Source: Escherichia phage PE37. From it: a DNA stretch of 64,000 nt. Every line of letters begins with the position of its first letter. The stretch's first letter is position 1. Positions 8,547 through 64,000 of the stretch are shown here, one piece after another. The position numbers and the translations under genes are program-made. Under the pieces are notes generated by a model, which saw only the letters and a program-made list of their open reading frames with translations, did not search any database and was not told the origin of the DNA. Location: sequence record NC_054929.1; one strand, written 5' to 3'.

Positions 8547-8570
8547 GGGAGCCTTCGGGCTCCCTTTTTA
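8547..8570 (+). terminator. intrinsic terminator (UUCG-loop hairpin + T-run)
   Basis: gggagcc-ttcg-ggctccc followed by ttttta. Confidence 0.65.
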
Positions 8571-8593
8571 TTTCAAAAATTTTTCACAAAGTT

Positions 8594-8623
8594 GTTTACA
8601 AGCATAAAGCTTTATGGTACTAT
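8594..8623 (+). promoter_or_regulatory. T4-type early promoter with conserved leader
   Basis: gtttacaagcataaagctttatggtactat, then conserved leader acaactatcaactgatacggatttggagaataaaATG. Confidence 0.6.
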
Positions 8624-8657
8624 ACAACTATCAACTGATACGGATTTGGAGAATAAA

Positions 8658-9626
8658 ATGAAAACTGTAACTATCAATAAGGGTATCTACTTCGGTAAAG
8701 AAATCTCTGGAACTTTTGAGCTCTTAGGCGAATGGTTCCCAGATAATGCTCCGGTAGATGCACAAGGAGATGGTAAAGTTTTTGTTGAAATTGACGGTAA
8801 GCGTCGCGGTGTTTGGGTTTACAAATCAGACATTTCATATGATGGTGTAAAAGTTGAAGAAGTTAAAGAATCGTATGAAGATATGAAAACCCGCATTAAT
8901 AAAAGATTTAATGTTATGGGAATGATGACGAATGGTATTATTAATGGAAATATTCGTTCATTAATTATCTCTGGCGCAGCAGGTATTGGTAAAACGTATT
9001 CTTTAGATAAAGCTTTAAATAAAGCAAATGATATTGGATACATTGAATATAAAAGCATTAATGGTAAAATCTCTGGTATTGGTCTTTATGAGCAGCTTTG
9101 GAATAATCGTGAAGAGAATTCTGTCCTTTTGATTGATGATGTGGATGTTTTCTCTGATATGGACATTCTTAATCTTCTGAAAGCTGCTCTGGACACTGGA
9201 GAGACCCGTAAAGTCTGCTGGAGCACCGCATCTTCTTACTTAGAAGAAAAAGGCATTGAGCGTGAGTTTGAATTTAAAGGAACGATTGTTTTTATCACAA
9301 ACGTTGACATTGACCGCGAATTAGACCGTGGTACTAAACTTGCTCCACATTTACAAGCATTAGTGTCCCGCTCAGTTTATTTGGATTTGGGTGTTCACAC
9401 TAATGAAGAAATTATGGTCAGGGTTGAAGATGTTATTCTTTCAACTGACATGATGCAAAAGCGCGGTCTTTCTGATGAAGAAACTTATAAAGCATTATCA
9501 TGGATGAAAGTCAATGTTAATCGTTTACGCAATGTTTCACTGCGTACTGCTCTTTATCTTGCTGACTTTATTATGACCGACAAAAACGGTTGGGAAGAAA
9601 TTGCTACGGTTACTCTTCTGAAATAA
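8658..9626 (+). CDS. AAA+/P-loop ATPase-like protein (322 aa)
   Basis: Walker A SGAAGIGKT and Walker B VLLIDDVD; track ORF trimmed to ATG after conserved leader. Confidence 0.6.
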   Translation: MKTVTINKGIYFGKEISGTFELLGEWFPDNAPVDAQGDGKVFVEIDGKRRGVWVYKSDISYDGVKVEEVKESYEDMKTRINKRFNVMGMMTNGIINGNIRSLIISGAAGIGKTYSLDKALNKANDIGYIEYKSINGKISGIGLYEQLWNNREENSVLLIDDVDVFSDMDILNLLKAALDTGETRKVCWSTASSYLEEKGIEREFEFKGTIVFITNVDIDRELDRGTKLAPHLQALVSRSVYLDLGVHTNEEIMVRVEDVILSTDMMQKRGLSDEETYKALSWMKVNVNRLRNVSLRTALYLADFIMTDKNGWEEIATVTLLK

Positions 9627-9728
9627 ATTCATAAGAGGACTTCTAAGACAAAAAGGCAGTTCAGAAATAGATTATATGGACTGCCATCAAAAAGATGACT
9701 AGAATTAAACTGGTAAATGGAGGTAAAG

Positions 9729-10031
9729 ATGTTATACTCAAAAGCTCGTGAAATTTATGAAACTAAAATTAAAGACGCGGTTCATCAGTTCGCAACGACA
9801 ATGCGTTGGACAAATGACTGGGAATACTCCAAGAATCATAAGAAGCCCTTGGTGACAAGAAAGGCTCATATGTTAGTGTTAATAGACCGTGAGCAGATTA
9901 AAGCCCGAGAAGCCCTCCAGAATCATAAAAAGGCTGCCTTTGAATGGTTTATGGATAACACTGCTCCTGAGACTAAGAAAGCAGTGAGCGCTTGGTTCAG
10001 TGGAAAAAATTGTGAAAGAAGTTTCTTTTAG
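9729..10031 (+). CDS. hypothetical protein (100 aa)
   Basis: Track ORF 9717..10031 trimmed to ATG 9729 with GGAGG RBS. Confidence 0.5.
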   Translation: MLYSKAREIYETKIKDAVHQFATTMRWTNDWEYSKNHKKPLVTRKAHMLVLIDREQIKAREALQNHKKAAFEWFMDNTAPETKKAVSAWFSGKNCERSFF

Positions 10032-10033
10032 TT

Positions 10034-10063
10034 GTTTACAAGACTGTTCCTCTGTGGTACTAT
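10034..10063 (+). promoter_or_regulatory. T4-type early promoter with conserved leader
   Basis: gtttacaagactgttcctctgtggtactat + acaactatcaact leader. Confidence 0.55.
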
Positions 10064-10091
10064 ACAACTATCAACTACGGAGGAACAGAAA

Positions 10092-10619
10092 ATGAACGCT
10101 AAAGATATTTTCAACTTGGTAAACTACAATGATGGTAAATTTAAATCTGAAGCACAAAGTAAGTTCTTTAATGACATCTCAATCGGAGGTGAAATCACTG
10201 TTGATGGAGGACAAATTTACAAATCCCGTTGGAATTGGATCGTTATTATTGATGAGATTGGTATTGTAGAAATTTACAAAAATACGAATAAAAATCGTAC
10301 ATTACACTGGTCTCGTGATACTAACGAACAGTACAAAAAGGATAAAGCATCTAAGTTATCTCGTGTAACTCAAGAAGATATTGAGTTCATCAAGAAAGAT
10401 ATTTTGATGTATGATAACTTAATTGCTGAAGAGCAAGCTGTTATTGATAAATTTGATGAGATTAAAGCTTCTCATAAAATTCCTGATTTTATGAAAGAAT
10501 CAGTAAATGAACGATACACTCTCATTTCAGAGCGTATTGAAACTTACAAAAAGCAAAGAGCTGAACGCCAGAATACTCTTCGGAAGTTTGAAGAACGGTT
10601 AAAGACGGTACTTGCATAA
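10092..10619 (+). CDS. hypothetical protein (175 aa) with C-terminal coiled coil
   Basis: Track ORF trimmed to ATG 10092 with GGAGGAACAG RBS. Confidence 0.55.
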   Translation: MNAKDIFNLVNYNDGKFKSEAQSKFFNDISIGGEITVDGGQIYKSRWNWIVIIDEIGIVEIYKNTNKNRTLHWSRDTNEQYKKDKASKLSRVTQEDIEFIKKDILMYDNLIAEEQAVIDKFDEIKASHKIPDFMKESVNERYTLISERIETYKKQRAERQNTLRKFEERLKTVLA

Positions 10620-10621
10620 CC

Positions 10622-10646
10622 GCTTTATACCAAGGATGGTATAATG
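10622..10646 (+). promoter_or_regulatory. promoter (MotA-box-like GCTTTAT + TATAAT)
   Basis: cgctttataccaaggatggtataatgg. Confidence 0.4.
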
Positions 10647-10674
10647 GTTCTAAGCCCTTTTAATTGAGATTATT

Positions 10675-11082
10675 ATGAAACAGCTGATAATTAAAAGATT
10701 GAATTTATTGATATGTTGTTTATGTATAGTAATTGCATATGGTTATTACGCAATTAATGATTATATGCATTATAAAGATTATGATGTTACTGTAGTTAAT
10801 ACCCTTACAGGAACTCAAGGAAAGGGGTCTAGTTTATCGTTTATTGCCGTATATGAACTCAAAGACGGTTATAGATTTAGCGAATATATTTCCCCAGAGA
10901 TGTATTCATCAATAGAAAAAGGCGATAATATTACTGTAAGTTTACGTCCTTTCGACGTAAAACAGACATTGTTTGATAATATTGTTTGGTTCTTTGGAAT
11001 GGTATTAGTTCAATCTGTATGCGGTGCTTATATAGTCTTTTCCATCATATTCTGCGTATTTAGTAAAATTGAAATTGAGTGA
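10675..11082 (+). CDS. predicted membrane protein (135 aa)
   Basis: Track ORF; N- and C-terminal hydrophobic helices. Confidence 0.55.
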   Translation: MKQLIIKRLNLLICCLCIVIAYGYYAINDYMHYKDYDVTVVNTLTGTQGKGSSLSFIAVYELKDGYRFSEYISPEMYSSIEKGDNITVSLRPFDVKQTLFDNIVWFFGMVLVQSVCGAYIVFSIIFCVFSKIEIE

Positions 11083-11089
11083 GGAAAAT

Positions 11090-11977
11090 ATGTCAGTAGT
11101 AATTAATAATGTCAATGCAGTAATTAAATCTTTAGTTAATAAAAAATTGAATGAATGGACTGTACTTCGTCGTGGAGAGCCAGATAAATTTTTTCATAGA
11201 TTTAACCCAACTTTGGATTTGAATGTTATTGACAGAGATGTTCATGCAGAAATTTTAGATAAGTTTAAAGTTGATATTGGATTTGGATTAGAAAAACATT
11301 TACAGCGAACAAACGGGTCTGGAATGGGTTTATCTAATCGCATCATGAAAGCCCTTAATAAAATTGGAGCATTGTCTCGTATTAACGCGAGTGAAATCCT
11401 TCGTAATTATAATAAAGGATATGACCTTTATGGCCGACTAATGCCGAAATTGTCATTCGATCAAATGATTGCGGATTTGTGGGAAAATCAACGACGATTA
11501 TTAGCATTAGGCGCTAGATTAGCTAAAGGTCTAGATAAACAAATGATTTTTAAAACTAATAATACAGAAGACCTTAAATGCTTTAAATTTAGTACTCGTG
11601 GAGATGACTATTACATCAGAGCTCACTCTACAGATTATGTCAATATGGGGCATCATCTCTGTTTAGCTTTTGAAGTTTTAAAAGAAGCCGGAACATTAGA
11701 ATATTCATCTGGGGCAAAATGCCCGATTGGTTCAAATTGTATTTTAATTTATCGCCCGAATGAATCCAGTTCAACTAAATTGCCTACAAAACCTGTACCA
11801 GTTCGTAATAATGAAAAACATTCTGAGCAAATTGATTATTTTAATAAGCAAATTGAAGAGCTGAATATTTCTATTCAACAATATGATGATGAAATTTTCA
11901 GACTATCTGGACTGAGTAGTAAAGCTAAATCTGAGCGTGAAAAGTTAATTAAAATTGTTGATTTACTTAAATCTTAA
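11090..11977 (+). CDS. hypothetical protein (295 aa), C-terminal coiled coil
   Basis: Track ORF trimmed to ATG 11090 with GAGGAAAA RBS. Confidence 0.6.
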   Translation: MSVVINNVNAVIKSLVNKKLNEWTVLRRGEPDKFFHRFNPTLDLNVIDRDVHAEILDKFKVDIGFGLEKHLQRTNGSGMGLSNRIMKALNKIGALSRINASEILRNYNKGYDLYGRLMPKLSFDQMIADLWENQRRLLALGARLAKGLDKQMIFKTNNTEDLKCFKFSTRGDDYYIRAHSTDYVNMGHHLCLAFEVLKEAGTLEYSSGAKCPIGSNCILIYRPNESSSTKLPTKPVPVRNNEKHSEQIDYFNKQIEELNISIQQYDDEIFRLSGLSSKAKSEREKLIKIVDLLKS

Positions 11978-11985
11978 GGAACACC

Positions 11986-13005
11986 ATGAAAACTCGTTCT
12001 CAAATTGAAGATATGGTTCGTAATGCCAGCTATACTCGTGATGTTATGACATTTTTGTGCCAAAATAATTTAGACCCTGATAAAGTTAATCGTGATATTC
12101 ACTTTAAATATATGAATAGCAGTGAATGGTTACGTCATTTTAGTAAAGCGGGATATATTACACAAATGACTGCTCGTGAGCAGCTCACCGATTTCTGTAA
12201 AACTATTGATTATAAAAATCCTCTATTTGTTCAAGGCGTTGGTCAAAGTAAGGTCGATTTATCATCTGGATTTTTCAATCCAAATCATTATCGTATTGAA
12301 TGGAGATTTATTGCTCTGTTCCGTAGACAATTAAAGCAAATTTTGTCTACTGCTAGTCGATTAAAAGGCTCTGATATTAACTTAAAGAATCTGAAATTTG
12401 ATGGTTATACTCTTCAGATGGAAGTAAGACCGTTAAAAGAAAATAATAGAACTGCACGAATTAGCTTTAAACCTAATACAAAAAATTCTCTTTCAATTTG
12501 TGAATGCCTTAAATCACAGTTGACAGAAGCATTTAAGTATATGGATGTTGTTGCTGCTGTTCAATCTAAGATTTTACCTCGTTTTGAACGATTTAAGTTA
12601 GATACAACATCATATGAACTTGATATGATCGTTTCATTTAAATACGATTTTTTGAGAAAGGACGAAGTCCCGCAAGAGAAAAAGCAAGAAGTGCAAGATA
12701 ACTTAAATTTATCTAATTACTCATCAAACGATCCTAAATTTTGGATGTATAGTTCAGGCAATAAAGATGCATGGAAATTCAATAAAGTGAATTTTCTTCC
12801 TATTGAAAATCCGAGTCTTAAACCTGTTGAAAAATGGCACGCGGATGCGATTGGGAAGTCTATCAAGGCAGTAGATGATGAACTCGTTAAAGCAACTAAT
12901 GAAGTGTTAGAAGCTGAAAAGATGCTAGAAAAAGCTCAAGAAAAAGTCAAAAATCTCACGAAGCAACGTTCTAAACTGAACAATGCACTAAATGCACTGA
13001 ACTAG
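11986..13005 (+). CDS. hypothetical protein (339 aa), C-terminal coiled coil
   Basis: Track ORF, AGGAA RBS. Confidence 0.6.
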   Translation: MKTRSQIEDMVRNASYTRDVMTFLCQNNLDPDKVNRDIHFKYMNSSEWLRHFSKAGYITQMTAREQLTDFCKTIDYKNPLFVQGVGQSKVDLSSGFFNPNHYRIEWRFIALFRRQLKQILSTASRLKGSDINLKNLKFDGYTLQMEVRPLKENNRTARISFKPNTKNSLSICECLKSQLTEAFKYMDVVAAVQSKILPRFERFKLDTTSYELDMIVSFKYDFLRKDEVPQEKKQEVQDNLNLSNYSSNDPKFWMYSSGNKDAWKFNKVNFLPIENPSLKPVEKWHADAIGKSIKAVDDELVKATNEVLEAEKMLEKAQEKVKNLTKQRSKLNNALNALN

Positions 13006-13032
13006 TTTACTTTGCCACAAGGATGTGGTATA
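13005..13032 (+). promoter_or_regulatory. T4-type early promoter
   Basis: gtttactttgccacaaggatgtggtataat. Confidence 0.55.
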
Positions 13033-13062
13033 ATGTTCTTACTTTCTACTGAGGAGATTAAT

Positions 13063-14064
13063 ATGACTCGTAACGAATATATCAAATCATTCAATAGCGT
13101 TATTGATGATAAAGCTATACCGATGTTTGGCCAAAATAGCGTTCTTTCTATTATCAATCAATGGCTCAATAGTGTTGATGCAGGTATTGTTTCTTCTGCT
13201 AAATTTATTCATGAAATTCGTAAAATTTCTAGCCGTGTAGATAAAGATAATATCAAGAAAACCTTTAAAGAGTCTCGTCTTCTTTCATATTTGGTTAATC
13301 GGGATATTCTTGGTAATTTTGGGAAAGAAATTAAACGAACCAAAGATGTAGTAGGATATAATTGGTTCGGTGATGTTAATTCTTATCATCTTAATAATAA
13401 AGAAGACCCTGAGAATATTTTTACTCGTCGTTGGATTAGTAATTTCAGACTTTTTAAAGGACAAATTCTAAAATCAGCTTCTAAATTATGTTATGGCGAT
13501 TATCGTCAAATTCATCCTTTGGCTTCTGATATGATTATCGTAAAAGAATATGAGCTTGATGAAAATAAAGTAGCTATTTTTGTGAATTATGGATTTTTTA
13601 CACCAAACGCTAATCAAAAGAATATTAATAAATTTTTCTCAATTGCTAGTGATATAACTCGACAATTAGAGACTGCACTACTTTGTATGGAAACAGTAGA
13701 AAATATTCATACATATCCTTTTAAGAATATATGCGGATGGGAAGGATATAAAATTGTAATTAGTCTTCGTGAAGTGAAATGTGCTTATTCACCTACTGAT
13801 AAAGAAATTTACCAACAAAAATGTGATGAAATTGTGAATACTCCTAAAGAAGAAACTACCCTTGAGGAACTAATGGATAATCTTGATGATTCACCTGAAC
13901 CGGTAGAAATTCGTCCAGAAGTTATTGCATTAGAAAAAGCTTATAAAGAAGTTCTAGAAATTTCTAATAAAGCGCAGAAAGAATATGAGCAGGCTAAAAA
14001 GATTTGGGAAGAATCCGTTAATCGTCTTGATCGTCTTGAACAAGCTTTAAAGTTAATTAAGTAA
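13063..14064 (+). CDS. hypothetical protein (333 aa), C-terminal coiled coil
   Basis: Track ORF trimmed to ATG 13063 with GAGGAG RBS. Confidence 0.6.
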   Translation: MTRNEYIKSFNSVIDDKAIPMFGQNSVLSIINQWLNSVDAGIVSSAKFIHEIRKISSRVDKDNIKKTFKESRLLSYLVNRDILGNFGKEIKRTKDVVGYNWFGDVNSYHLNNKEDPENIFTRRWISNFRLFKGQILKSASKLCYGDYRQIHPLASDMIIVKEYELDENKVAIFVNYGFFTPNANQKNINKFFSIASDITRQLETALLCMETVENIHTYPFKNICGWEGYKIVISLREVKCAYSPTDKEIYQQKCDEIVNTPKEETTLEELMDNLDDSPEPVEIRPEVIALEKAYKEVLEISNKAQKEYEQAKKIWEESVNRLDRLEQALKLIK

Positions 14065-14116
14065 TTTAAAGCCAAGGATGGCTCGGAGTATAAATCATTA
14101 ACCAAGTGAGAAGAAC

Positions 14117-15043
14117 ATGAAAACTCGTAAACATTATATTGATTATTTTGACAGTCTTATTACTAAACACCGTAATTATCAAATCGGACACAGAGCAGTA
14201 ATCAATAATATTCTTCGTGATTTTTTAGACTATATTGGTTGGGAAAACCATATTTGTAAAGATACACAAAATGCGTATTCACATTCTCTTGGTTCTTTGC
14301 TCGAGTGGTTCAAGCGTTCCCGATTACTATCTTCTGTGATAGCTGTTAATAATGTTAAAAAATTTATGTATCCAATCTACATTAAGACTAATGTATCAAA
14401 TGCTAGTGTTGTTACATTTAATATTATTAACGACGTGAAAAGAACTTATTTAGAAGAATGGTTTTCTAAAGATAGTAAAGAAAAATTTGCTAGTGAATTT
14501 TCACACGAATTCAATAATAACGTAAATATGCTTTTTAAGCATTCTCGTAGACTGTTTTGTCATGGTGATAACCGTACTATTAATGTGAATGTAAAAGACT
14601 GGGTTACGGCTAAATTTATTCCATCGTCCCAGAATGGACAATTTGAATTGTCAATTATCGTTTGCGCTCCGCATGAGATATATAAAAATCTTCCGTATAT
14701 GAAACCACGCGAAGCTAATAAACACAATGAAACTATTAGTTCTTTGGCTTATAATTTGCGCGTGTTATTATCTGATATGGATGTAGTCAAATCCTTTGAT
14801 GATAATACGAATTATGGTCTTTCACTGTTTGAAACTAAATTTGTTATTAAATTAAAGGACCCTAGTGAATTTAAACCTATACCAAAATCCAATCATGGAA
14901 ATGATACTATGAAAGAAGAACGTGAATATCTCAATGTCCGTTTGACTGAAGTTGAAAAACAAATTGAAGAGCATACTAAAGTTCTTAAGGCTTTAACCGC
15001 CAAAGCAAATGGTTTACGTAATGCTATTGAGGTATTGAAATGA
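14117..15043 (+). CDS. hypothetical protein (308 aa), C-terminal coiled coil
   Basis: Track ORF; starts MKTR like ORF 11986. Confidence 0.6.
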   Translation: MKTRKHYIDYFDSLITKHRNYQIGHRAVINNILRDFLDYIGWENHICKDTQNAYSHSLGSLLEWFKRSRLLSSVIAVNNVKKFMYPIYIKTNVSNASVVTFNIINDVKRTYLEEWFSKDSKEKFASEFSHEFNNNVNMLFKHSRRLFCHGDNRTINVNVKDWVTAKFIPSSQNGQFELSIIVCAPHEIYKNLPYMKPREANKHNETISSLAYNLRVLLSDMDVVKSFDDNTNYGLSLFETKFVIKLKDPSEFKPIPKSNHGNDTMKEEREYLNVRLTEVEKQIEEHTKVLKALTAKANGLRNAIEVLK

Positions 15044-15429
15044 AAAAGCGTTTATTAGAAGACATTGCAGCTTCAAGTAATTCCAGTTTAATTAAAATTA
15101 TTATGGCTGGTGAGGAAGATGATATGGAAATGCGTGGAAAGATTCACGGCTGCGACGATTTAGATTTTAAACCTCCAGCATGGGATGCTATTATGGCTAT
15201 GGTTGAACGACGTGAAAGAGCTTCTAAAAACGTTCCTAATTGCCCTGAATGCGATACTGAACAAGTTCAATTGATTAACTGGCGTAAACCAGAGCTTGAA
15301 TATAAATGCCGTCAATGTAAACATAAATTCAGTAAGCATGCTCCGGAAATGGTTAAATTGCCTGACTCTACTGAGTTCTTTAAAGAACTTGTGAGTGTTC
15401 AACCAATGCCTAATAATATTTTGGATTAA
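15040..15429 (+). CDS. zinc-ribbon protein (129 aa; CPEC-x17-CRQC)
   Basis: Track ORF; two CxxC pairs. Confidence 0.6.
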
Positions 15430-15431
15430 AA

Positions 15432-15674
15432 ATGACCAAGCGTAAAGAATATATGGAGGCTGCTGAAAAGGCAGTCCGTGAATTAGCAATAGCTTATTAT
15501 AATGAACATGGTAAATTTCCTGATAGATACAGCGTGCTTAAATCTGCTTTAACTCGTTCATATAAAAATATGCTATCAGAAGTAAGTGATATTATATACA
15601 AACATAAAGAACAAACGGGCCAAAGTCTTGATTACGACGAGACTTTTAAACAAGTACTAGGAATTAAGGAATAA
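15432..15674 (+). CDS. hypothetical protein (80 aa)
   Basis: Track ORF. Confidence 0.55.
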
Positions 15675-15675
15675 T

Positions 15676-15939
15676 ATGTTTAAAGTATATGGTTATGATA
15701 GCAACATTCACAAATGTGTGTATTGCGATAATGCAAAACGTCTTTTGACCGTGAAGAAACAGCCGTTTGAATTTATCAACATTATGCCGGAAAAAGGTGT
15801 TTTTGATGATGAGAAAATCGCTGAGCTTCTGACTAAACTAGGTCGTGATACTCAAATCGGCTTGACAATGCCCCAGGTATTTGCTCCTGATGGAAGTCAT
15901 ATTGGTGGATTTGACCAACTGCGAGAATATTTTAAATGA
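15676..15939 (+). CDS. nrdC: thioredoxin/glutaredoxin NrdC
   Basis: 87 aa, CVYC active site, matches recalled T4 NrdC. Confidence 0.9.
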   Translation: MFKVYGYDSNIHKCVYCDNAKRLLTVKKQPFEFINIMPEKGVFDDEKIAELLTKLGRDTQIGLTMPQVFAPDGSHIGGFDQLREYFK

Positions 15940-16151
15940 TGCTCGAAGGAACTGACTATATTCACGATTACCGCGGAAGCGCGGTATATGTAGGTGATGA
16001 AGTTGCAGTTTATTATGGGTATGGAACTTTGATGACAGCAAAGGTTATTCAAATTAAAAATAATCGTGCTAAACTCGAAGTTTATTATTCTAATGATGAA
16101 AAGTCTATTTCTAAGTGGAAATACGGCGATTGTATGGTTAAATTGGGGTAA
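15936..16151 (+). CDS. hypothetical protein (71 aa)
   Basis: Track ORF, ATGA overlap. Confidence 0.5.
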   Translation: MMLEGTDYIHDYRGSAVYVGDEVAVYYGYGTLMTAKVIQIKNNRAKLEVYYSNDEKSISKWKYGDCMVKLG

Positions 16152-16153
16152 AT

Positions 16154-16324
16154 ATGATTTACGATATTAATGTATCACGAGCTCCGTCAATGGTTACTAT
16201 TCCAGCCGAAGAACTAGAACGTCTTCAGAAAATTGAAGAACTTCTTTGGGAAATTGAATGTGCCCTGCCATCAGGACTAGAATCCTGGATTGATGATGAA
16301 GAACTTAATAAATTGCGAAATTAA
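16154..16324 (+). CDS. hypothetical acidic small protein (56 aa)
   Basis: Hand-called ORF filling a gap; below track cut-off. Confidence 0.4.
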   Translation: MIYDINVSRAPSMVTIPAEELERLQKIEELLWEIECALPSGLESWIDDEELNKLRN

Positions 16325-16334
16325 TTGGTGAAAA

Positions 16335-16655
16335 ATGACTATTGAAAATAAATTAGATGTTGATGCAGTTCTGAGCGAAATCATTGAAGACCATGATGCA
16401 TTTTCGGAAAACTATGATTTCGATTTTTCCGATTATCTTAAACCTGTCGAAATAGAAGACTGGGTGCAAGATGGTAAATGTCAATATCGTCAGTGTGTTT
16501 ACTTTAGTCCAAAACATAATGTACATGTGGCTGTAAATGAATCTCGGTTAGGTTCTTATCATTCTGACTGGTATTATGCAGTTCCGACTGTTGAACTAGT
16601 CGAGCCCCATGAACGTGTAGTAACTCAGACAATACGAGAATGGATTACGCTATAA
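16335..16655 (+). CDS. hypothetical acidic protein (106 aa)
   Basis: Track ORF; very acidic N-terminal half. Confidence 0.55.
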   Translation: MTIENKLDVDAVLSEIIEDHDAFSENYDFDFSDYLKPVEIEDWVQDGKCQYRQCVYFSPKHNVHVAVNESRLGSYHSDWYYAVPTVELVEPHERVVTQTIREWITL

Positions 16656-17264: not shown

Positions 17265-17276
17265 AAATAATAAATA

Positions 17277-17300: not shown

Positions 17301-17305
17301 TTATT

Positions 17306-54592: not shown

Positions 54593-54601
54593 AGGAAAAT
54601 T

Positions 54602-55664: not shown

Positions 55665-55761
55665 AGTTTAAAATTTTTTCATAAAACTATATACATCAGT
55701 AGTTGATTATGGTACTATATCAATATCAACTACTGATACAGAAAACAACTTGGAGAATAAA

Positions 55762-56031: not shown

Positions 56032-56044
56032 TGAGGAAATTGTA

Positions 56045-56260
56045 ATGAAACGTAAAATTGTTCAGAATTGCACTAATGACGAATTTGAAGATGTATTATT
56101 TGATCCAAATCTTGTAGTAGTTCAAAAGGAACATACTAATAAGTTTACTCACTTGACTTCGGTTTATGTGTACGAAAAAGTTGGTGATAAACAACCAATT
56201 TATGGTGTGTTTCGCGAAATTACTGAAGATGGTACAACTTATTGGAAGGAAACTTATTAA
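56045..56260 (+). CDS. hypothetical protein (71 aa), possibly Cef
   Basis: Track ORF; length/position resemble T4 cef. Confidence 0.45.
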
Positions 56261-56685
56261 TGGCTATTAAATTTGAAGTTAATAAATGGTATCAATTTAA
56301 AAATAAACAAGCTCAAGAAGATTTTATCAAGGACCATACTGAAAACGGAATTTATGCACGACGTCTTGGTATGGAACCTTTTAGAGTTACAGATATTGAC
56401 TATCTTGGTCGTCCTACTAAACTTGTGACATCTAGTGGAAAATTGGGGTTATCTTCTGGTAAAGATATTTTGGATGAAGATTTTATCTGGCTTTCAACGA
56501 GTGAAGCTGTGTTCTTTGATGAAGTGGAAAATCCATACCAGGCAGCTGAAGAGCAAGAGCAGGAAGAGAAAGAGCAAGAACAAATAGAAGATTTCACAGA
56601 ATTCCCGGTCATGAAAGTTACTATTGAAAATAATGAACAGGCATGGTCTTTGTATCAGATGTTGAAAGCACACTTTAAGGAATAA
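56260..56685 (+). CDS. goF: hypothetical protein (141 aa) with acidic C-terminus, possibly GoF
   Basis: Length and position match T4 goF; symbol by synteny only. Confidence 0.4.
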
Positions 56686-56687
56686 TT

Positions 56688-56864
56688 ATGCCAATGTATG
56701 ATTATAAATGCCAATCCGAAGATTGCGGGCATGAATATGAAAAAATTAAAAAGATTTCTGAACGAGAAAATGATGTTTGCCCTAAATGTCATCGTTTGTC
56801 TACTCGTCGGCCTTCTGCTCCTAAGCATGTGAATGGCGGTTTTTACGATTTACTTAAAGGGTGA
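56688..56864 (+). CDS. small zinc-ribbon protein (58 aa; CxxC-x16-CxxC)
   Basis: Hand-called ORF MPMYDYKCQSEDCGHEYEK...CPKCHR; below track cut-off. Confidence 0.5.
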   Translation: MPMYDYKCQSEDCGHEYEKIKKISERENDVCPKCHRLSTRRPSAPKHVNGGFYDLLKG

Positions 56865-56866
56865 TT

Positions 56867-57241
56867 ATGTTTAAAATCGGTAAGAAATATCGTGTTCGCG
56901 AAGGTGAAGAAAAGAAATATCTACTTTCTGCTAGTAATAGGAATGGTTCTATTAATGCCGTAATATCTACAAGCGAATTTATCGTTGAAGATATGAAAGG
57001 TCATAATGTTACAATGATTAGTACAGCAACTAGCAGAAATGCTGGAAAAATTCTTCACAGTCTGCGGAGTGAAGTTCTAATTTATGATGAAGAATTTGAC
57101 TTCTTCGAAGAAGTCACTGAAGATTTTGATTTTGAATGCACTATCACTATGAAATCTGGCGACCCTCTTTCTTTTACAGTTAAAGATGAAAGAAGCCGTT
57201 TGAGAATTATTAGTCTCCTTCAAGCCATTAAATTTAAGTGA
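56867..57241 (+). CDS. hypothetical protein (124 aa)
   Basis: Track ORF 56861..57241 trimmed to ATG 56867. Confidence 0.55.
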   Translation: MFKIGKKYRVREGEEKKYLLSASNRNGSINAVISTSEFIVEDMKGHNVTMISTATSRNAGKILHSLRSEVLIYDEEFDFFEEVTEDFDFECTITMKSGDPLSFTVKDERSRLRIISLLQAIKFK

Positions 57242-57507
57242 AAACTATGAAATATATTAATCGTTCTATTGCAGCATTAGTATTAGCAGTATCTTTAGTA
57301 GGATGTACTGATGCTGATAATGCAACTAAAATTTTATCATCAAGTGGTTTTACGAATATTGAAATCACTGGATATAACTGGTTCGGTTGCTCTGAAAATG
57401 ATTTCCAACATACTGGATTTCGTGCTATTGGACCTACTGGGCAGAAAGTAGAAGGAACAGTATGTTCTGGGTTGTTCTTTAAGGATTCAACTATTCGTTT
57501 TAAATAA
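57238..57507 (+). CDS. predicted lipoprotein (89 aa)
   Basis: Signal peptide with lipobox LVGC. Confidence 0.55.
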   Translation: MKTMKYINRSIAALVLAVSLVGCTDADNATKILSSSGFTNIEITGYNWFGCSENDFQHTGFRAIGPTGQKVEGTVCSGLFFKDSTIRFK

Positions 57508-57524
57508 AAGGCCTTCGGGCCTTT
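57507..57524 (+). terminator. UUCG-loop hairpin terminator
   Basis: aaaggccttcgggccttt. Confidence 0.6.
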
Positions 57525-57550
57525 AGCTTTATGATTGCCGGAGTATAATA
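57522..57550 (+). promoter_or_regulatory. middle promoter (MotA-box-like AGCTTTA + TATAAT) upstream of gene 39
   Basis: tagctttatgattgccggagtataat. Confidence 0.45.
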
Positions 57551-57576
57551 TTCCCGAAACCAAACGAGGATAAGTA

Positions 57577-59394
57577 ATGATTAAGAATGAAATTAAAATT
57601 CTGAGCGATATTGAACATATCAAAAAGCGTAGTGGCATGTATATTGGCTCTTCTGCTAATGAAATGCATGAGCGCTTTCTGTTTGGTAAATGGGAAAGTG
57701 TTCAGTATGTACCTGGTCTTGTTAAGCTCATTGATGAAATTATCGATAACTCAGTCGATGAAGGTATTCGTACTAAGTTTAAATTCGCGAATAAAATTAA
57801 TGTTACCATTAAAAATAATCAGGTAACAGTTGAAGATAACGGTCGTGGTATTCCACAAGCGATGGTTAAAACACCTACCGGTGAAGAAATTCCTGGTCCA
57901 GTTGCTGCTTGGACTATTCCAAAAGCAGGTGGTAACTTTGGTGATGATAAAGAACGTGTCACCGGTGGTATGAATGGTGTTGGTTCTAGTTTAACTAACA
58001 TTTTTTCTGTGATGTTTGTCGGTGAAACTGGCGATGGTCAAAATAATATTGTAGTTCGTTGTTCAAATGGTATGGAAAATAAATCCTGGGAAACTATTCC
58101 TGGAAAATGGAAAGGAACTCGTGTTACTTTCATTCCTGATTTTATGTCATTTGAAACTAATGAGCTGTCTCAGGTTTATCTTGATATTACACTGGATCGT
58201 CTCCAGACACTTGCTGTTGTTTATCCTGATATTCAATTTACCTTTAATGGTAAAAAGGTTCAGGGCAATTTTAAGAAATATGCACGACAGTATGATGAAC
58301 ACGCTATTGTTCAAGAACAAGAAAATTGTTCTATTGCGGTTGGTCGTTCACCGGATGGTTTTCGTCAATTAACTTATGTGAATAACATTCACACTAAGAA
58401 TGGTGGTCATCACATTGATTGTGTTATGGATGATATTTGTGAAGACCTTATTCCACAAATCAAACGTAAATTCAAAATTGATGTAACTAAAGCACGCGTT
58501 AAAGAATGTTTGACTATCGTTATGTTTGTTCGTGATATGAAAAACATGCGATTTGATTCTCAAACTAAAGAGCGTTTGACTTCTCCATTTGGCGAAATTC
58601 GTAGTCATATTCAGCTTGATGCTAAAAAGATTTCACGCGCTATTCTAAATAATGAAGCAATTTTAATGCCGATTATTGAAGCTGCGTTGGCTCGTAAATT
58701 GGCGGCAGAAAAAGCAGCAGAAACTAAAGCAGCTAAAAAGGCTTCTAAAGCTAAGGTTCATAAACATATCAAAGCGAATCTCTGTGGTAAAGATGCTGAC
58801 ACTACTCTTTTCTTGACTGAGGGTGATTCTGCTATCGGATATCTTATTGATGTTCGTGATAAAGAACTTCATGGTGGTTATCCATTGCGTGGTAAAGTTC
58901 TCAACAGTTGGGGTATGTCATATGCTGATATGCTTAAAAACAAAGAACTATTTGATATTTGCGCAATCACTGGATTAGTTCTTGGTGAAAAAGCTGAAAA
59001 CTTGAATTATCATAATATTGCTATTATGACCGATGCTGACCATGATGGTTTAGGAAGCATTTATCCTTCTCTGCTCGGATTTTTTAGTAATTGGCCAGAA
59101 TTGTTTGAGCAAGGACGAATTCGCTTTGTCAAAACTCCTGTAATCATCGCTCAGGTCGGTAAAAAACAAGAATGGTTTTATACAGTCGCTGAATATGAGA
59201 GTGCTAAAGATGCTCTACCTAAACATAGCATCCGTTATATTAAAGGACTTGGCTCTTTGGAAAAATCTGAATATCGTGAGATGATTCAAAATCCAGTATA
59301 TGATGTTGTTAAACTTCCTGAGAACTGGAAAGAGCTTTTTGAAATGCTCATGGGAGATAATGCTGACCTTCGTAAAGAATGGATGAGCCAGTAG
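57577..59394 (+). CDS. 39: DNA topoisomerase II large subunit gp39, fused form (ATPase + gene-60-equivalent C-terminus)
   Basis: 605 aa single ORF with GHKL ATPase motifs; T4 has split 39/60, T2/T6 have a fused gene. Confidence 0.9.
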   Translation: MIKNEIKILSDIEHIKKRSGMYIGSSANEMHERFLFGKWESVQYVPGLVKLIDEIIDNSVDEGIRTKFKFANKINVTIKNNQVTVEDNGRGIPQAMVKTPTGEEIPGPVAAWTIPKAGGNFGDDKERVTGGMNGVGSSLTNIFSVMFVGETGDGQNNIVVRCSNGMENKSWETIPGKWKGTRVTFIPDFMSFETNELSQVYLDITLDRLQTLAVVYPDIQFTFNGKKVQGNFKKYARQYDEHAIVQEQENCSIAVGRSPDGFRQLTYVNNIHTKNGGHHIDCVMDDICEDLIPQIKRKFKIDVTKARVKECLTIVMFVRDMKNMRFDSQTKERLTSPFGEIRSHIQLDAKKISRAILNNEAILMPIIEAALARKLAAEKAAETKAAKKASKAKVHKHIKANLCGKDADTTLFLTEGDSAIGYLIDVRDKELHGGYPLRGKVLNSWGMSYADMLKNKELFDICAITGLVLGEKAENLNYHNIAIMTDADHDGLGSIYPSLLGFFSNWPELFEQGRIRFVKTPVIIAQVGKKQEWFYTVAEYESAKDALPKHSIRYIKGLGSLEKSEYREMIQNPVYDVVKLPENWKELFEMLMGDNADLRKEWMSQ

Positions 59395-59397
59395 TTT

Positions 59398-59428
59398 ACT
59401 TTACCACAAGGATGTGGTATAATTAATT
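59398..59428 (+). promoter_or_regulatory. T4-type early promoter
   Basis: gtttactttaccacaaggatgtggtataat. Confidence 0.55.
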
Positions 59429-59448
59429 GGGCAAATGAGGATATTGAA

Positions 59449-59652
59449 ATGAAATCATATAGAGTAAATTTAGAACTTTTTGATAAAGCAGTTCATCGAG
59501 AATATAGAATCATTCAACGCTTTTTCGATATGGGAGAAGCCGAAGAATTTAAAAACCGCTTTAAAGATATTAGAGATAAAATTCAATCCGACACCGCAAC
59601 TAAAGATGAACTACTAGAAGTTGCTGAAGTTATTAAGCGTAATATGAATTAA
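59449..59652 (+). CDS. hypothetical protein (67 aa), rIIA.1-like by position
   Basis: Track ORF. Confidence 0.55.
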
Positions 59653-59662
59653 TGAGGAAATT

Positions 59663-61840
59663 ATGATTATCACCACTGAAAAAGAAACAATTCTTGGTAA
59701 TGGTTCTAAATCAAAAGCATTTAGCATCACAGCATCTCCTAAAGTATTTAAAATTCTGTCATCTGATTTGTATACAAACAAAATTCGCGCAGTAGTCCGT
59801 GAATTGATTACCAACATGATTGATGCTCATGCTCTCAATGGAAATCCTGAAAAATTTATCATTCAAGTTCCTGGACGTTTAGATCCACGATTTGTTTGCC
59901 GAGATTTTGGTCCGGGTATGAGTGATTTTGATATTCAGGGTGATGATAATTCTCCTGGTTTGTATAATTCATACTTCAGTTCATCTAAGGCTGAATCTAA
60001 CGATTTCATTGGCGGATTTGGTTTAGGTTCTAAATCTCCGTTTAGTTATACTGATACGTTTAGTATTACTTCGTATCATAAAGGTAAAATTCGTGGTTAT
60101 GTAGCTTACATGGATGGTGATGGCCCACAGATTAAACCTACATTCGTAAAAGAAATGGGTCCAGATGATAAAACTGGTATTGAAATCGTAGTTCCAGTTG
60201 AAGAAAAAGACTTTAGAAACTTTGCTTATGAAGTTTCTTATATCATGCGACCGTTCAAAGATTTGGCTATTATTAATGGTCTTGACCGTGAAATTGATTA
60301 TTTTCCGGATTTTGATGATTATTACGGTGTAAATCCAGAAAGATACTGGCCTGATCGTGGTGGATTATATGCTATCTATGGCGGTATTGTTTATCCTATC
60401 GATGGTGTTATTAGAGACCGTAACTGGCTAAGCATTCGCAATGAAGTGAATTACATTAAGTTTCCAATGGGTTCACTTGATATTGCTCCATCACGTGAAG
60501 CTCTTTCATTGGATGATCGCACTCGTAAAAATATTATTGAACGAGTTAAAGAGCTTAGTGAGAAAGCATTTAATGAAGATGTAAAACGATTTAAAGAATC
60601 TACATCTCCCCGTCACACATATCGTGAATTGATGAAGATGGGGTATTCTGCTCGAGATTATATGATTAGTAATTCAGTCAAATTCACGACTAAAAATCTG
60701 TCATATAAAAAGATGCAGAGTATGTTTGAACCTGACAGTAAGTTATGTAATGCAGGCGTGGTGTATGAAGTAAATCTTGACCCTCGACTGAAGCGCATTA
60801 AGCAAAGTCATGAAACTTCAGCCGTTGCATCAAGTTATCGTCTGTTTGGTATTAATGCAACAAAAATTAATATCGTTATTGATAATATTAAAAATCGTGT
60901 TAATATTGTCCGTGGATTAGCACATGCGTTAGATGATAGTGAATTTAATAACACTTTGAATATTCATCACAATGAGCGTCTTCTGTTTATTAATCCGGAA
61001 GTAGAATCGCAGATTGATTTGCTTCCTGATATTATGGCGATGTTTGAAAGTGATGAAGTTAACATTCATTATTTGTCAGAAATTGAAAATTTAGTTAAAA
61101 GCTATATTCCAAAGGTAGTTAAAAGTAAAGCTCCTCGTCCTAAAGCTGCTACAGCATTTAAGTTTGAAATTAAAGACGGGCGCTGGGAAAAAGAGGAACT
61201 GTTTACACTTACGTCAGAAGCAGATGAAATTACTGGGTATGTAGCGTATATGCATCGTTCTGATATTTTCTCTATGGATGGTACTACATCTCTTTGTCAT
61301 CCATCTATGAATATTTTGATTCGTATGGCTAATCTTATTGGCATTAATGAATTTTATGTTATTCGTCCGCTTTTGCAGAAAAAGGTAAAAGAACTCGGTC
61401 AGTGCCAATGTATTTTTGAAACTCTGCGTGATTTATATGTAGATGCTTTTGATGATGTAGATTATGATAAGTATGTAGGTTATTCAAGTTCAGCTCAACG
61501 GTATATTGATAAAATTATCAAGCATCCTGAACTAGATTTTATGATGAAGTACTTCAGTACAGATGAAGTTTCTGAAGAATATACACGACTCGCTAATATA
61601 GTTAGTTCATTGCGCGGTGTATATTTTAATGGTGGAAAAGATACCATCGGTCATGATATCTGGACAGTAACTAATCTTTTTGATGTATTATCAAATAATG
61701 CTTCAAAAAACAGTGATAAAATGGTTGCTGAGTTTACCAAGAAATTCCGTATTGTTTCCGACTTCATCGGATATCGCAACTCTTTAAGTGATGATGAAGT
61801 TTCCCAAATCGCTAAAACTATGAAGGCCCTTGCGGCCTAA
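59663..61840 (+). CDS. rIIA: rIIA membrane-associated protein
   Basis: 725 aa, length and position as T4 rIIA. Confidence 0.9.
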
Positions 61841-61851
61841 TAAGGAAAATT

Positions 61852-62790
61852 ATGTACAATATTAAATGCCTGACCAAAAACGAACAAGCTGAAATTGTTA
61901 AACTGTATTCAAGCGGTAATTATACTCAGCAGGAATTGGCTGATTGGCAAGGTGTATCAGTTGATACAATCCGTCGTGTTTTGAAAAATGCTGAAGAAGC
62001 TAAACGCTCTAAAGTTACTATTAGCGGTGATATTACAGTTAAAGTTAATAGCGATGCAGTTATTGCTCCAGTTACTAAATCTGACATTATTTGGAATGCA
62101 TCTAAAAAATTCATTTCGATTACTGTCGATGGTGTAACTTATAATGCAACACCTAATACTCATTCAAACTTCCAGGAAATTCTCAATCTGCTTGTAGCGG
62201 ATAAGCTGGAAGAAGCGGCACAAAAAATTAATGTTCGTCGCGCTGTTGAAAAATATATTTCCGGCGATGTTCGAATTGAAGGTGGAAGCTTATTCTATCA
62301 AAATATTGAATTGCGGTCTGGTTTGGTTGATCGTATTCTTGATTCGATGGAAAAAGGCGAAAACTTTGAATTTTATTTTCCGTTCTTGGAAAATCTGCTG
62401 GAAAACCCAAGCCAGAAAGCGGTATCTCGACTTTTTGATTTCTTGGTAGCAAACGATATTGAAATTACAGAAGATGGTTACTTCTATGCTTGGAAAGTAG
62501 TTCGCAGCAATTACTTTGACTGTCACTCAAATACCTTTGATAACAGTCCTGGTAAAGTAGTTAAAATGCCGCGTATTCGTGTGAATGACGATGATACACA
62601 AACTTGTTCTCGTGGTCTGCATGTGTGTTCTAAATCTTATATTCGTCATTTTGGCAGTTCAACCAGCCGAGTTGTAAAAGTTAAAGTTCATCCTCGCGAT
62701 GTAGTATCAATTCCGATTGATTACAACGACGCTAAAATGCGTACCTGCCAATACGAAGTAGTTGAAGACGTTACTGAACAATTTAAATAA
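61852..62790 (+). CDS. rIIB: rIIB protein
   Basis: 312 aa, directly downstream of rIIA. Confidence 0.9.
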   Translation: MYNIKCLTKNEQAEIVKLYSSGNYTQQELADWQGVSVDTIRRVLKNAEEAKRSKVTISGDITVKVNSDAVIAPVTKSDIIWNASKKFISITVDGVTYNATPNTHSNFQEILNLLVADKLEEAAQKINVRRAVEKYISGDVRIEGGSLFYQNIELRSGLVDRILDSMEKGENFEFYFPFLENLLENPSQKAVSRLFDFLVANDIEITEDGYFYAWKVVRSNYFDCHSNTFDNSPGKVVKMPRIRVNDDDTQTCSRGLHVCSKSYIRHFGSSTSRVVKVKVHPRDVVSIPIDYNDAKMRTCQYEVVEDVTEQFK

Positions 62791-62805
62791 GGGCTTCGGC
62801 CCTTA
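62788..62805 (+). other. UUCG-loop hairpin (GGGC-UUCG-GCCC) without strong T-run
   Basis: aagggcttcggccctt after rIIB stop. Confidence 0.5.
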
Positions 62806-62818
62806 ACTAAGGAAAATT

Positions 62819-63013
62819 ATGTTAGGTTATCAAGCACGAGTAAAAGAAGAATACGATCAATTAATGCTCAAAATTAATGCACTGAGCAAATTTTTAGAAA
62901 GCGCAAAGTTTCTAACGGTTAGTGCAGTTGAGCAAGAATTACTGCTTTCGCAGTTTATTTCAATGAAATCTTACGCAGATTGTTTAGAGAAAAGAATTGC
63001 ACAATTCAAATAA
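62819..63013 (+). CDS. hypothetical protein (64 aa)
   Basis: Track ORF. Confidence 0.5.
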   Translation: MLGYQARVKEEYDQLMLKINALSKFLESAKFLTVSAVEQELLLSQFISMKSYADCLEKRIAQFK

Positions 63014-63016
63014 AGT

Positions 63017-63040
63017 AAAGGGCTTCGGCCCTTTTGTTTT
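63017..63040 (+). terminator. intrinsic terminator (GGGC-UUCG-GCCC + T-run)
   Basis: aaagggcttcggcccttttgtttt. Confidence 0.7.
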
Positions 63041-63099
63041 AAGGGAAACTATGATTTATTATATTAACATCAGTGATTCCGACGTAAAAGGAAAGTTTA

Positions 63100-63657
63100 A
63101 TGCAGAAAACGAATCCGGGTTTACAGAGACTACTTCAGATTCCGGCATTTACCATGTCTAATAGTGACTTGACTAGTGAAATGAAGGTCAAAATTGCTGA
63201 TACAGCAAGATACTCTTTAAAACAAAATCCAAATCAGGATAAAGCAGAAGTTATCGAAAGATGCCGTATCGCGGTGTACGCAGAGTTTTTTGTAGCAGAT
63301 TGGCTAAGCGGGTATGTTAACAAAGGCCAAGAGGATGTTAATGACCCATATACATACGCATGGGATGTATTGGCGCATCCAAGATACTGCGGGCTTCGTG
63401 TAGAAGTTAAGACACACCAAACTGGCTCACGTTGGATTTCTGTAACAACAGGATGCAGCGGAGAGTATCCATATGGTTCTGGAATAAATCTAGGGCCCAT
63501 TCTAAATCATCAAGTCGCTGACTGTATAATTATATTCAACACTAAAGAAATTCATCCAGGTGTCATCCAGTACACTCCGAAGTTCATCGGTGATAAAGAA
63601 GACCTTCGTAAGGTTGTAAGAAAAAGCAACTACAACGGATGGTATCTTTCCATTTAA
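63100..63657 (+). CDS. denB: endonuclease IV DenB
   Basis: 185 aa, position downstream of rIIB as T4 denB. Confidence 0.75.
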   Translation: MQKTNPGLQRLLQIPAFTMSNSDLTSEMKVKIADTARYSLKQNPNQDKAEVIERCRIAVYAEFFVADWLSGYVNKGQEDVNDPYTYAWDVLAHPRYCGLRVEVKTHQTGSRWISVTTGCSGEYPYGSGINLGPILNHQVADCIIIFNTKEIHPGVIQYTPKFIGDKEDLRKVVRKSNYNGWYLSI

Positions 63658-63674
63658 AAATTTCACAAAACGGT

Positions 63675-63705
63675 TTACATACCACAAGGACTGTGGTACT
63701 ATACA
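63675..63705 (+). promoter_or_regulatory. T4-type early promoter with conserved leader
   Basis: gtttacataccacaaggactgtggtactat + acaactatcaactgatacggatttggagagtaaaATG. Confidence 0.55.
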
Positions 63706-63736
63706 ACTATCAACTGATACGGATTTGGAGAGTAAA

Positions 63737-64000
63737 ATGAAATTTAAATTTTATTATGCTAAGCATAAAATAACTGATGAGTTTGTGTCAGTTGAATATT
63801 CTAGCGATGATGAAGGCATGATTTATACTCGCTTAGGACTATCGCATTGGGAGTCTGATCAGCCTTATTTTTCAACTCCTGAAGAAATTACACGCTTAGT
63901 TAATGGTCATATGAATGACCACTGGAATGTAATTCTTTCGGATAGTCTTAAAAATGCTATTAATAATAATGAAATGAAAATCGCTGAGATTGAACTATGA
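63737..64000 (+). CDS. hypothetical protein (87 aa)
   Basis: Track ORF 63725..64000 trimmed to ATG after conserved leader. Confidence 0.5.
   Translation: MKFKFYYAKHKITDEFVSVEYSSDDEGMIYTRLGLSHWESDQPYFSTPEEITRLVNGHMNDHWNVILSDSLKNAINNNEMKIAEIEL

Follow-up and report, generated by a model that had tools for sequence, protein, structure and literature searches.

The window considered here, i.e. a stretch of 64,000 nt from Escherichia phage PE37 (NC_054929.1), contains a recurrent cassette that runs from an early-type promoter through a leader to the start codon of an open reading frame (ORF). A 21-mer at its core, GGTACTATACAACTATCAACT, occurs exactly at 8616, 10056, 35394 and 63695 and with three mismatches at 55711; all five sites lie on the + strand, each just upstream of an unrelated ORF. 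Repeat finding within the window reveals two more members, i.e. a sixth, partial one at 4839-4899 (TACTATACAACTATC) and a distant one at 42226. Megablast assigns the window to Tequatrovirus, the T4 genus: segment 34000-37000, the only one so tested, is matched by 495 records with at least 80% query cover in one place, and 445 best matches reach 95% identity or more, the top one being phage EO1 (99.7%). The T4 map, when reversed, is colinear with the window at 86-99% identity, window 1..61851 corresponding to T4 63442..1 and window 61852..63742 to T4 168903..167014. The repeats very probably constitute a paralogous family of Tequatrovirus early promoters together with their 5' leaders, i.e. cassettes of the promoter early stem-loop (PeSL) type, which double as patches of homology for recombination. 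Such cassettes have been described before in T4-type phages, T4 included, and the novelty of the phenomenon is low. The members and the features next to them are, from left to right:

4806..4823, + strand: terminator-like hairpin with a UUCG loop and a T-run, 16 nt upstream of the partial cassette 4839
4839..4899, + strand: partial member (copy 4839) with GTTTAC, an 18-nt spacer, TACTATACAACTATC and its own leader, up to the ATG of the mobD.5 homologue (ORF 4897-5085)
8546..8565, + strand: intrinsic-terminator-like hairpin GGGAGCC-UUCG-GGCUCCC with a T-run, following the nrdC.11 homologue; the annotation of phage Aplg8 calls the matching hairpin a rho-independent terminator
8575..8660, + strand: copy 1 (8594) with UP-like element AAAAATTTTTCACAAAGTT, -35 GTTTAC (8594-8599), spacer (8600-8617), TGn and -10 TACTAT (8618-8623), initial transcribed region and leader (8624-8647), Shine-Dalgarno/RegB-S1 consensus GGAGAATAAAA (8648-8658) and the ATG (8658) of the nrdC.10 homologue (ORF to 9626)
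10034..10094, + strand: copy 2 (10034), before the nrdC.8 homologue, with -35 (10034-10039), -10 (10058-10063), a short leader and ATG (10092)
35268..35285, + strand: terminator-like hairpin GGGACC-UCCA-GGUCCC with a T-run, after gene 43 and 87 nt upstream of copy 3
35353..35441, + strand: copy 3 (35372) with UP-like element, -35 (35372-35377), -10 (35396-35401), the full leader, the GGAT variant GGATAATAAAA (35429-35439) and the ATG (35439) of a 78-aa ORF (to 35675), which precedes imm.1 and is deleted in T4
42226..42286, + strand: distant member TACTATATAAACATAAACT, upstream of the spackle (sp) homologue
55689..55764, + strand: copy 4 (55689) with -35 ATATAC, -10 (55713-55718), a longer leader, RegB consensus GGAGAATAAAA (55752-55762) and the ATG (55762) of an 89-aa ORF (to 56031), which lies between motB and cef and is truncated by a deletion in T4
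63656..63739, + strand: copy 5 (63673) with UP-like element, -35 (63673-63678), -10 (63697-63702), the full leader, GGAGAGTAAAA (63727-63737) and the ATG (63737) of an 87-aa ORF (to 64000), which follows denB and of which T4 retains only the last 8 codons

An earlier, sequence-only reading of this DNA had described five near-identical copies with a conserved leader in front of unrelated genes, several of them behind a UUCG-loop terminator. Reading of the sites, together with the exact and near matches to GGTACTATACAACTATCAACT, confirms that the repeat recurs at these places. The core is present in all copies, but the full leader is confined to 8594, 35372 and 63673: the 24-mer GATACGGATTTGGAGAATAAAATG, allowing one mismatch, is found in the window only at 8637, 35418 and 63716. 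In copy 55689 GATACGGATTTGGAGAATAAAATG-type ends are split by inserted bases, and the leader of copy 10034 is shorter and different (ACGGAGGAACAGAAAATG). The hairpin at 8546 indeed has a UUCG loop, whereas the loop of the one at 35268 is UCCA, and an upstream terminator sought at copies 10034, 55689 and 63673 was not found. That the downstream genes are unrelated holds as well, as blastp between their proteins gives no match better than E=0.019. A Pfam scan of the downstream ORFs of 62-175 aa gives no match, and for the nrdC.10 homologue (322 aa) it gives only AAA-type hits that miss the curated cut-offs.

The window contains about 19 early-type promoters on the + strand. Over the 15 nt past the -10 hexamer the mean identity is 11.9/15 among the six members and 5.1/15 among the 13 others, i.e. 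the copies have more in common than a canonical -35/-10 consensus, and an alignment of the six copies displays common blocks across the members. Chance resemblance, or faulty assembly of AT-rich intergenic DNA, is hardly conceivable as the origin of the repeats: nothing but the AT-richness of the region speaks for it, neither the 21-mer nor the 24-mer has a match in 100 dinucleotide-preserving shuffles, and T4, like hundreds of other genomes that were sequenced independently, has the copies at orthologous sites.

A promoter and leader family of T4-type phages

The order of elements in a unit is the same throughout, i.e. often the T-run of an upstream terminator, an A/T-rich tract AAAAATTTTTCACAAAAC, GTTTAC, an 18-nt spacer of locus-specific sequence, TGn with TACTAT, then ACAACTATCAACT(ACT)GATAC... 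and finally GGAGAATAAAATG. All six copies have the GTTTAC-N18-TAnnnT geometry with TGn, the -35 of copy 55689 being degenerate (ATATAC). The AAAAATTTTTCACAAAAC-type tract is aligned in 8594, 35372 and 63673, has one substitution in 55689 and is weaker in 10034 and 4839. T4 early promoters have been published as 'UP/-35/TGn/-10' elements, which prevail over host promoters when infection begins (PMC2988021), and the cassettes resemble them in the A/T-rich UP element, GTTTAC, the 17-18-nt spacing, TGn, TAnnnT, the location on the early-gene strand and the orthologous positions. Unlike other early promoters, however, the window copies have TACTAT rather than TATAAT as -10 element, and a 13-19-nt initial transcribed region plus leader is common to the family but missing from the other 13 early promoters of the window.

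The 3' end of the leader is a second recognisable module. The RegB consensus GGAGRAYARAA has exactly two matches in the 64 kb, at 8648 and 55752, both in family leaders (0.45 expected). The leaders of 8594 and 55689 contain an exact copy of GGAGAAUAAAA, the published optimal T4 RegB/S1 cleavage site, which overlaps the Shine-Dalgarno sequence and the AUG, and RNA folding predicts the RegB-site stretch in these two leaders to be unstructured. Copy 63673 has one mismatch to the consensus and copy 35372 is a GGAU variant. Copy 10034 departs from it, and its GGAG is predicted to be paired in read-through RNA; the T4 nrdC.8 site is reported as only 'moderately cleaved' by RegB. A scan of the whole window at Rfam gathering thresholds yields no family, i.e. 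the leaders are not a known structured RNA.

Going by published work on T4, promoter activity and RegB cleavage may be expected here, too. The optional intrinsic terminator would end the preceding transcription unit, and the UP element, the -35 GTTTAC(A), the 18-nt spacer, TGn and TACTAT would allow the host sigma-70 polymerase to initiate right after infection. The promoter would be followed by the common initial transcribed region ACAACTATCAACT..., and the end of the leader, GGAGAAUAAAAUG, which would combine Shine-Dalgarno sequence and start codon with an optimal RegB/S1 site, would permit early translation and later inactivation of the message. We infer that a gene behind the cassette is expressed in an early burst, after which RegB inactivates its message. 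The initial transcribed region has no evident function, and its identity among copies is better explained by common descent and exchange.

The family extends well beyond the window. Complete T4 contains 13 members with at most four mismatches to TACTATACAACTATCAACT, all on the early-gene strand and located upstream of ndd.6, ndd.4, motA, frd.3, trna.4, e.8, denV, mobD.5, nrdC.10, nrdC.8, imm.1, sp and cef. The five window copies are orthologous to the T4 sites before nrdC.10, nrdC.8, imm.1, cef and ndd.6; their counterparts lie at T4 55360, 53919, 27056, 6606 and 167062, and that of the 4839 cassette at 58756. The 49-nt segment from the -10 to the ATG of copy 8594 is found at 1400 places in 531 phage records, nearly all of which are by name enterobacterial T4-type phages, and the copies that were fetched all come from Tequatrovirus and occupy the same loci in the other genomes examined. 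Contigs from IMG/VR show the same copies at the same loci, with the exact 21-mer in six contigs, too few for statistics.

Other early promoters of the window also form near-identical pairs, spacers included, e.g. 13003-13034/59392-59423 (97% over 32 nt) and 5651-5688/41723-41760 (82% over 38 nt). Non-consensus sub-families are thus not confined to the TACTAT group.

Gene-content changes and exchange at the cassettes

The sequence-only reading had also regarded the cassettes as likely recombination joints at which gene-content breakpoints should be found. Comparison of the window with T4, FriedrichZschokke (FZ, MZ501067) and Sf24 (NC_042078) reveals about 32 distinct indel or replacement events. 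Six event ends lie within 5 nt of family cassettes, i.e. 35452, 55769 and 63742 versus T4, 8634 and 8648 versus FZ, and 55658 versus FZ and Sf24, a replaced segment ending at the 5' edge of copy 55689 in these two genomes. Breakpoints do coincide with the cassettes in this comparison, being seen within or next to 8594, 35372, 55689 and 63673, i.e. four of the five copies, and junctions inside cassettes, mosaic copies, a converted copy and the ends of T4 deletions all agree with the view that the cassettes mark likely joints, although the enrichment is weak.

At the nrdC.11/nrdC.10 junction, i.e. that of copy 8594, at least four gene-content states (none, X, Y+Z and Y+Z+X) are found:

None (window, T4, Sf24): the cassette stands directly before nrdC.10
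X with native promoter (Aplg8): ORF-X (66 aa) stands behind its own family-like promoter
X with chimeric promoter (FZ): an nrdC.10-type promoter is joined to the ORF-X leader
Y+Z (232Ecol030PP): ORF-Y, ORF-Z and another family-like promoter are followed by nrdC.10
Y+Z+X (IMG/VR contig L016): all three ORFs are present

All junctions at this site fall inside a promoter cassette or at its GGAGAATAAAATG end, and the crossover in FZ lies inside the shared TACTATA[C/G]A[A/C]CTATCAA. ORF-X is present in 146 records, Mosigvirus among them. In Mosigvirus APCEc01 it is located before nudE and e, i.e. in another hyperplastic region, and the module is 95.2% identical over 334 nt to that of the Tequatrovirus-type contig L016, the homology starting at the -35 of the ORF-X promoter and ending within the next promoter. 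ORF-X is thus a promoter-bounded module common to two genera at different loci. Its 66-aa protein, which begins MTTLNKRFGKAKSG..., has no assigned function; the module (2433-2765 in APCEc01, L031) includes its own promoter and the following promoter-hairpin. The ORF is also found in L016, L030 and FZ. More distant copies of ORF-X occur in T4-like phages of Klebsiella and Serratia.

A second kind of change is seen in T4 itself. Three T4 deletions, at 35372, 55689 and 63673, each remove the first ORF after the cassette (window 35439-35675, 55762-56031 and 63737-64000; T4 27013, 6557 and 167019) and run from the cassette end AATAAAATGAAAAT to a downstream sequence that resembles it and is ATGAAAAT-like. 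The overlap between the alignments is 14 nt at imm.1 and 8 nt at cef, and at the window's end a similar repeat is seen by eye. Remnants can still be recognised in T4: the 8-codon stub MKIAEIEL before ndd.6 corresponds to the final codons of the 87-aa ORF of the window, and a frameshifted stub is located upstream of cef, in the unannotated motB-cef gap. Most relatives possess these three small ORFs, which are missing from the T4 reference.

Moreover, several T4 copies are mosaics of one another. The frd.3 and nrdC.10 cassettes have identical spacers (18/18) and also agree upstream, and only then do the leaders differ; motA and frd.3 have 36 identical upstream nucleotides. The imm.1 cassette combines the ndd.4 spacer (17/18) with an nrdC.10-type leader and contains the 5' arm of the ndd.4/nrdC.8 hairpin, the partner arm being missing. 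Similarly, e.8 joins an imm.1-like spacer to a cef-type leader, and ndd.4 has a trna.4-type initial transcribed region. In 232Ecol030PP the ndd.4 cassette is identical to the phage's own nrdC.8 cassette at 60 of 61 positions, while it differs at about seven positions from its orthologues in FZ and T4, amid flanks that are 96-100% identical, which supports the interpretation of this copy as the product of an ectopic gene conversion.

Selection for an optimal promoter, initial transcribed region and ribosome-binding/RegB site might by itself keep the copies alike, and breakpoints might be found there merely because viable indels must respect gene boundaries. The coincidence of the 3' module with a functional consensus fits this explanation, as do the weak enrichment over a gene-boundary null and the ORFs after 55689 and 63673, which look vertically inherited. 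However, even the -35/-10 spacer, for which no consensus is required, can be identical between copies (frd.3 and nrdC.10, 18/18), chimeric cassettes hold orphan hairpin arms, a cassette was converted to its paralogue between nearly unchanged flanks, the junctions of the four-state site lie inside the shared -10/initial transcribed motif, and the cross-genus module ends within promoters. Function alone is thus an unlikely explanation.

Even less probable is an autonomous mobile element, i.e. integron-like ends or attachment sites that are moved by a dedicated recombinase recognising the motif or the hairpin. Arbiol et al. raised this possibility for PeSLs in comparison with integrons, and the presence of the ORF-X module at different loci in two genera would be in line with it. 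Junction positions vary, however, being located either in the -10/initial transcribed motif or at the Shine-Dalgarno sequence/ATG, as expected for homology-driven exchange. Furthermore, three of the five copies lack a significant hairpin, copies are stable at orthologous loci, and no recombinase turned up, although none was specifically sought, nor is one reported in the PeSL papers.

In the favoured explanation the cassettes serve as portable patches of homology. They are units of about 60-90 bp, near-identical at many loci of a phage which recombines very actively, and crossovers within them, together with short-repeat deletions at their ATGAAAAT ends, would insert, delete or swap small accessory ORFs, whereas gene conversion among copies would keep the cassettes alike. 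From published work on T4 we infer that the mechanism is general homologous recombination of the UvsX type. On balance, the cassettes have long occupied their orthologous loci in a stable manner and have repeatedly served as sites of exchange, but they do not move freely.

Several observations weigh against this interpretation. The six ends near cassettes compare with about 0.6 expected under a uniform null, but with about 2.7 if ends are spread over some 140 gene junctions (the homologous stretch of FZ has about 149 annotated genes; Poisson P ~0.06), so that the enrichment is weak and does not establish cassettes as hotter than gene boundaries in general. Among the compared genomes no breakpoint is seen at copies 10034 and 4839, and for 10034 this counts against a role in exchange. 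The T4 deletions use merely an 8-14-nt repeat at the ATG, i.e. the whole cassette is not needed for them. Copy-specific spacers are conserved between genomes, indicating that most copies have long been resident at their loci. Finally, mobility of the ORFs downstream of 55689 and 63673 was considered and rejected, as these ORFs have orthologous positions across genera and a vertical-type gradient of identity.

In some Tequatroviruses the ORF that follows copy 63673 is represented by a divergent allele with ~55% protein identity. In 232Ecol030PP (L032 2001-2264 versus window 63737-64000) the boundaries of this allele lie inside the ORF and not at the cassette, one about 45 nt past the start and the other about 25 nt short of the stop, and the leader of the accompanying cassette is swapped for a shorter, ACGGAGGAG-type one.

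Further differences from T4 are found elsewhere in the window. Several T4 homing-endonuclease insertions, i.e. the nrdD intron with I-TevII, mobC and mobB, are absent, and the window is also unlike T4 in the mobD and segF regions. T4 3910-2807, which runs from the end of gene 39 through mobA and 60.1 into the first part of gene 60 and includes the 50-nt translational-bypass segment, is replaced by 51 nt, and genes 39 and 60 thus appear fused, as annotated in FZ and Sf24. The window sites of this set are 18311-18314, 19590-19610, 24386-24411, 58994-59046, 6567-7530 and 46610-46896. In addition, a family of GGGCUUCGGCCC hairpins with UUCG loops recurs in intergenic DNA (21966-21979, 25598-25627, 30308-30337, 32485-32498, 57502-57531, 62777-62804 and 63017-63034), some of them followed by T-runs. 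They recall the GGGC/GCCC motifs at T4 deletion endpoints described by Mosig et al., as cited by Arbiol et al.

Pairing around early promoters

The promoter-leaders were folded as RNA from the -35 to the ATG. Copy 10034 reaches -23.2 kcal/mol (z -6.3), with a spacer arm at 10044-10058 (CUGUUCCUCUGUGG...) that pairs with an arm in the Shine-Dalgarno region at 10074-10088 (ACGGAGGAACAG). In copy 55689 (-20.2 kcal/mol, z -5.0) the spacer arm 55695-55707 pairs with an arm in the initial transcribed region, 55725-55737. Both hairpins have the -10 element and the predicted start site in their loops. A significant in-promoter fold is absent from 8594 (z +0.95), 35372 (+1.43), 63673 (-0.37) and 4839 (-0.44), and copy 63673 has a hairpin of no kind, neither inside nor upstream. 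The small palindrome TATCA-AC(TAC)-TGATA of the full-leader copies was considered as a hairpin and discarded, as it gives no significant fold.

Such pairing is not restricted to the family. The spacer pairs with the Shine-Dalgarno region at the non-family promoters 646-705 (regB), 44650-44707 and 54023-54082 (motB.2), it is the -10 region instead of the spacer that does so at 49048-49106 (modB), and a stem spans the -10 at 5651-5711, 55102-55178 and 41723-41784; z ranges from -3.7 to -5.8 at promoters 646, 5651, 54023 and 55102. For 26 T4 early promoters the mean binding energy of a spacer and its own downstream region is -12.3 kcal/mol, as compared to -7.6 kcal/mol with swapped partners, and 11 of the 26 cis pairs, but only 55 of 650 trans pairs, reach -12 kcal/mol or lower. 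None of 20000 cis versus trans permutations attains the observed sum. About 40% of Tequatrovirus early promoters, those of 10034, 55689, regB, motB.2 and ndd.4 included, have a hairpin with the spacer as 5' arm and their own initial transcribed region or Shine-Dalgarno sequence as 3' arm, the -10 and the predicted start site being located in the loop.

The regB promoter retains an ungapped stem of 11-15 bp in three lineages whose proteins are 100%, 77% and 67-68% identical, and six positions are changed on both sides of the stem. These stems were compared by an anchored ungapped procedure, as RNAalifold/MAFFT misaligned the 3' arms and under-counted covariation. Orthologues of nrdC.8 keep a hairpin through different arms and partners, and T4 ndd.4 and denV represent further independent hairpin solutions. 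At the level of sequence this is evidence that hairpin pairing around early promoters is under selection.

As to the role of the stem-loop, we can offer only a tentative suggestion, i.e. that it might act as a translational gate and not as a terminator. RNA that reads through from upstream would fold, masking the Shine-Dalgarno sequence and the RegB site, whereas RNA begun at the embedded promoter would lack the 5' arm and hence be translated. If this is true, promoter-ORF modules would be insulated from their neighbours, which would explain why shuffling is tolerated, and the hairpin-less copies 8594, 35372 and 63673 would be recombinants that have lost one arm, an orphan arm being still present in T4 imm.1. 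Durand et al. described 16 structured, RegB-resistant GGAG RNAs, and part of the hairpin structure may already be implicit in them.

A precedent exists for late transcription: T4 e, soc, 49 and I-TevI have a late promoter within a hairpin that sequesters the Shine-Dalgarno sequence, limiting translation to late transcripts. Likewise, 10034, 646, 44650, 49048 and 54023 pair the Shine-Dalgarno sequence with an arm upstream of the predicted start site, and according to the folding model only RNA from the proximal promoter would expose it. In contrast to these genes, the embedded promoter is an early one here, and three family copies are without structure.

Relation to PeSLs and other modular systems

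In T4-like phages cassettes of this type drive immediate-early expression, and they have been proposed to guide the modular shuffling of genes. For annotation they mark the starts of transcription units, messages under RegB control and sites of accessory-gene turnover, which helps to compare therapeutic or environmental T4-like isolates. The additional examples, i.e. a four-state site, a cross-genus module, a converted cassette, deletion remnants in T4 and conserved hairpins, refine the published model, and the spacer-to-Shine-Dalgarno hairpins around many early promoters may be newer than the rest.

PeSLs have been described for RB49/phi1 (Arbiol et al. 2010) and for the pairs PST/T4 and nt-1/KVP40 (Comeau et al. 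2014), with the consensus TTTACW-N17-TAYWAT for PST/T4 and an exchange in the ndd region (Comeau et al. 2014). The window copies fit this consensus and have the same AT-rich region, strong sigma-70-type promoter and 3' Shine-Dalgarno sequence/ATG, often with a stem-loop or terminator. Like PeSLs, they are located in hyperplastic regions before small ORFs (cassette loci are nrdC.x, mobD.x, imm.1, motB-cef and ndd.x), and crossovers fall between the -10 and the Shine-Dalgarno sequence. The stem-loop itself is found in some copies only: stems enclose the -10 in 10034 and 55689, as in RB49 and unlike PST, where they lie just upstream, and terminators precede 4839, 8594 and 35372, whereas three of the five copies are without a significant in-promoter stem-loop. 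The resemblance to PeSL cassettes proposed from the sequence alone is thus borne out in most features.

Integron cassettes, the 'morons' of lambdoid phages and the 'linkers' of Botstein are also small accessory genes that travel with their expression signals, or conserved flanks that guide the sites of exchange. Different from integrons, there is neither an integrase nor an attC-type site here, the junctions are variable and homology-driven, and the orientation is always that of early transcription. The units work like Botstein 'linkers' and, more loosely, like integron cassettes, and nothing suggests a dedicated recombinase.

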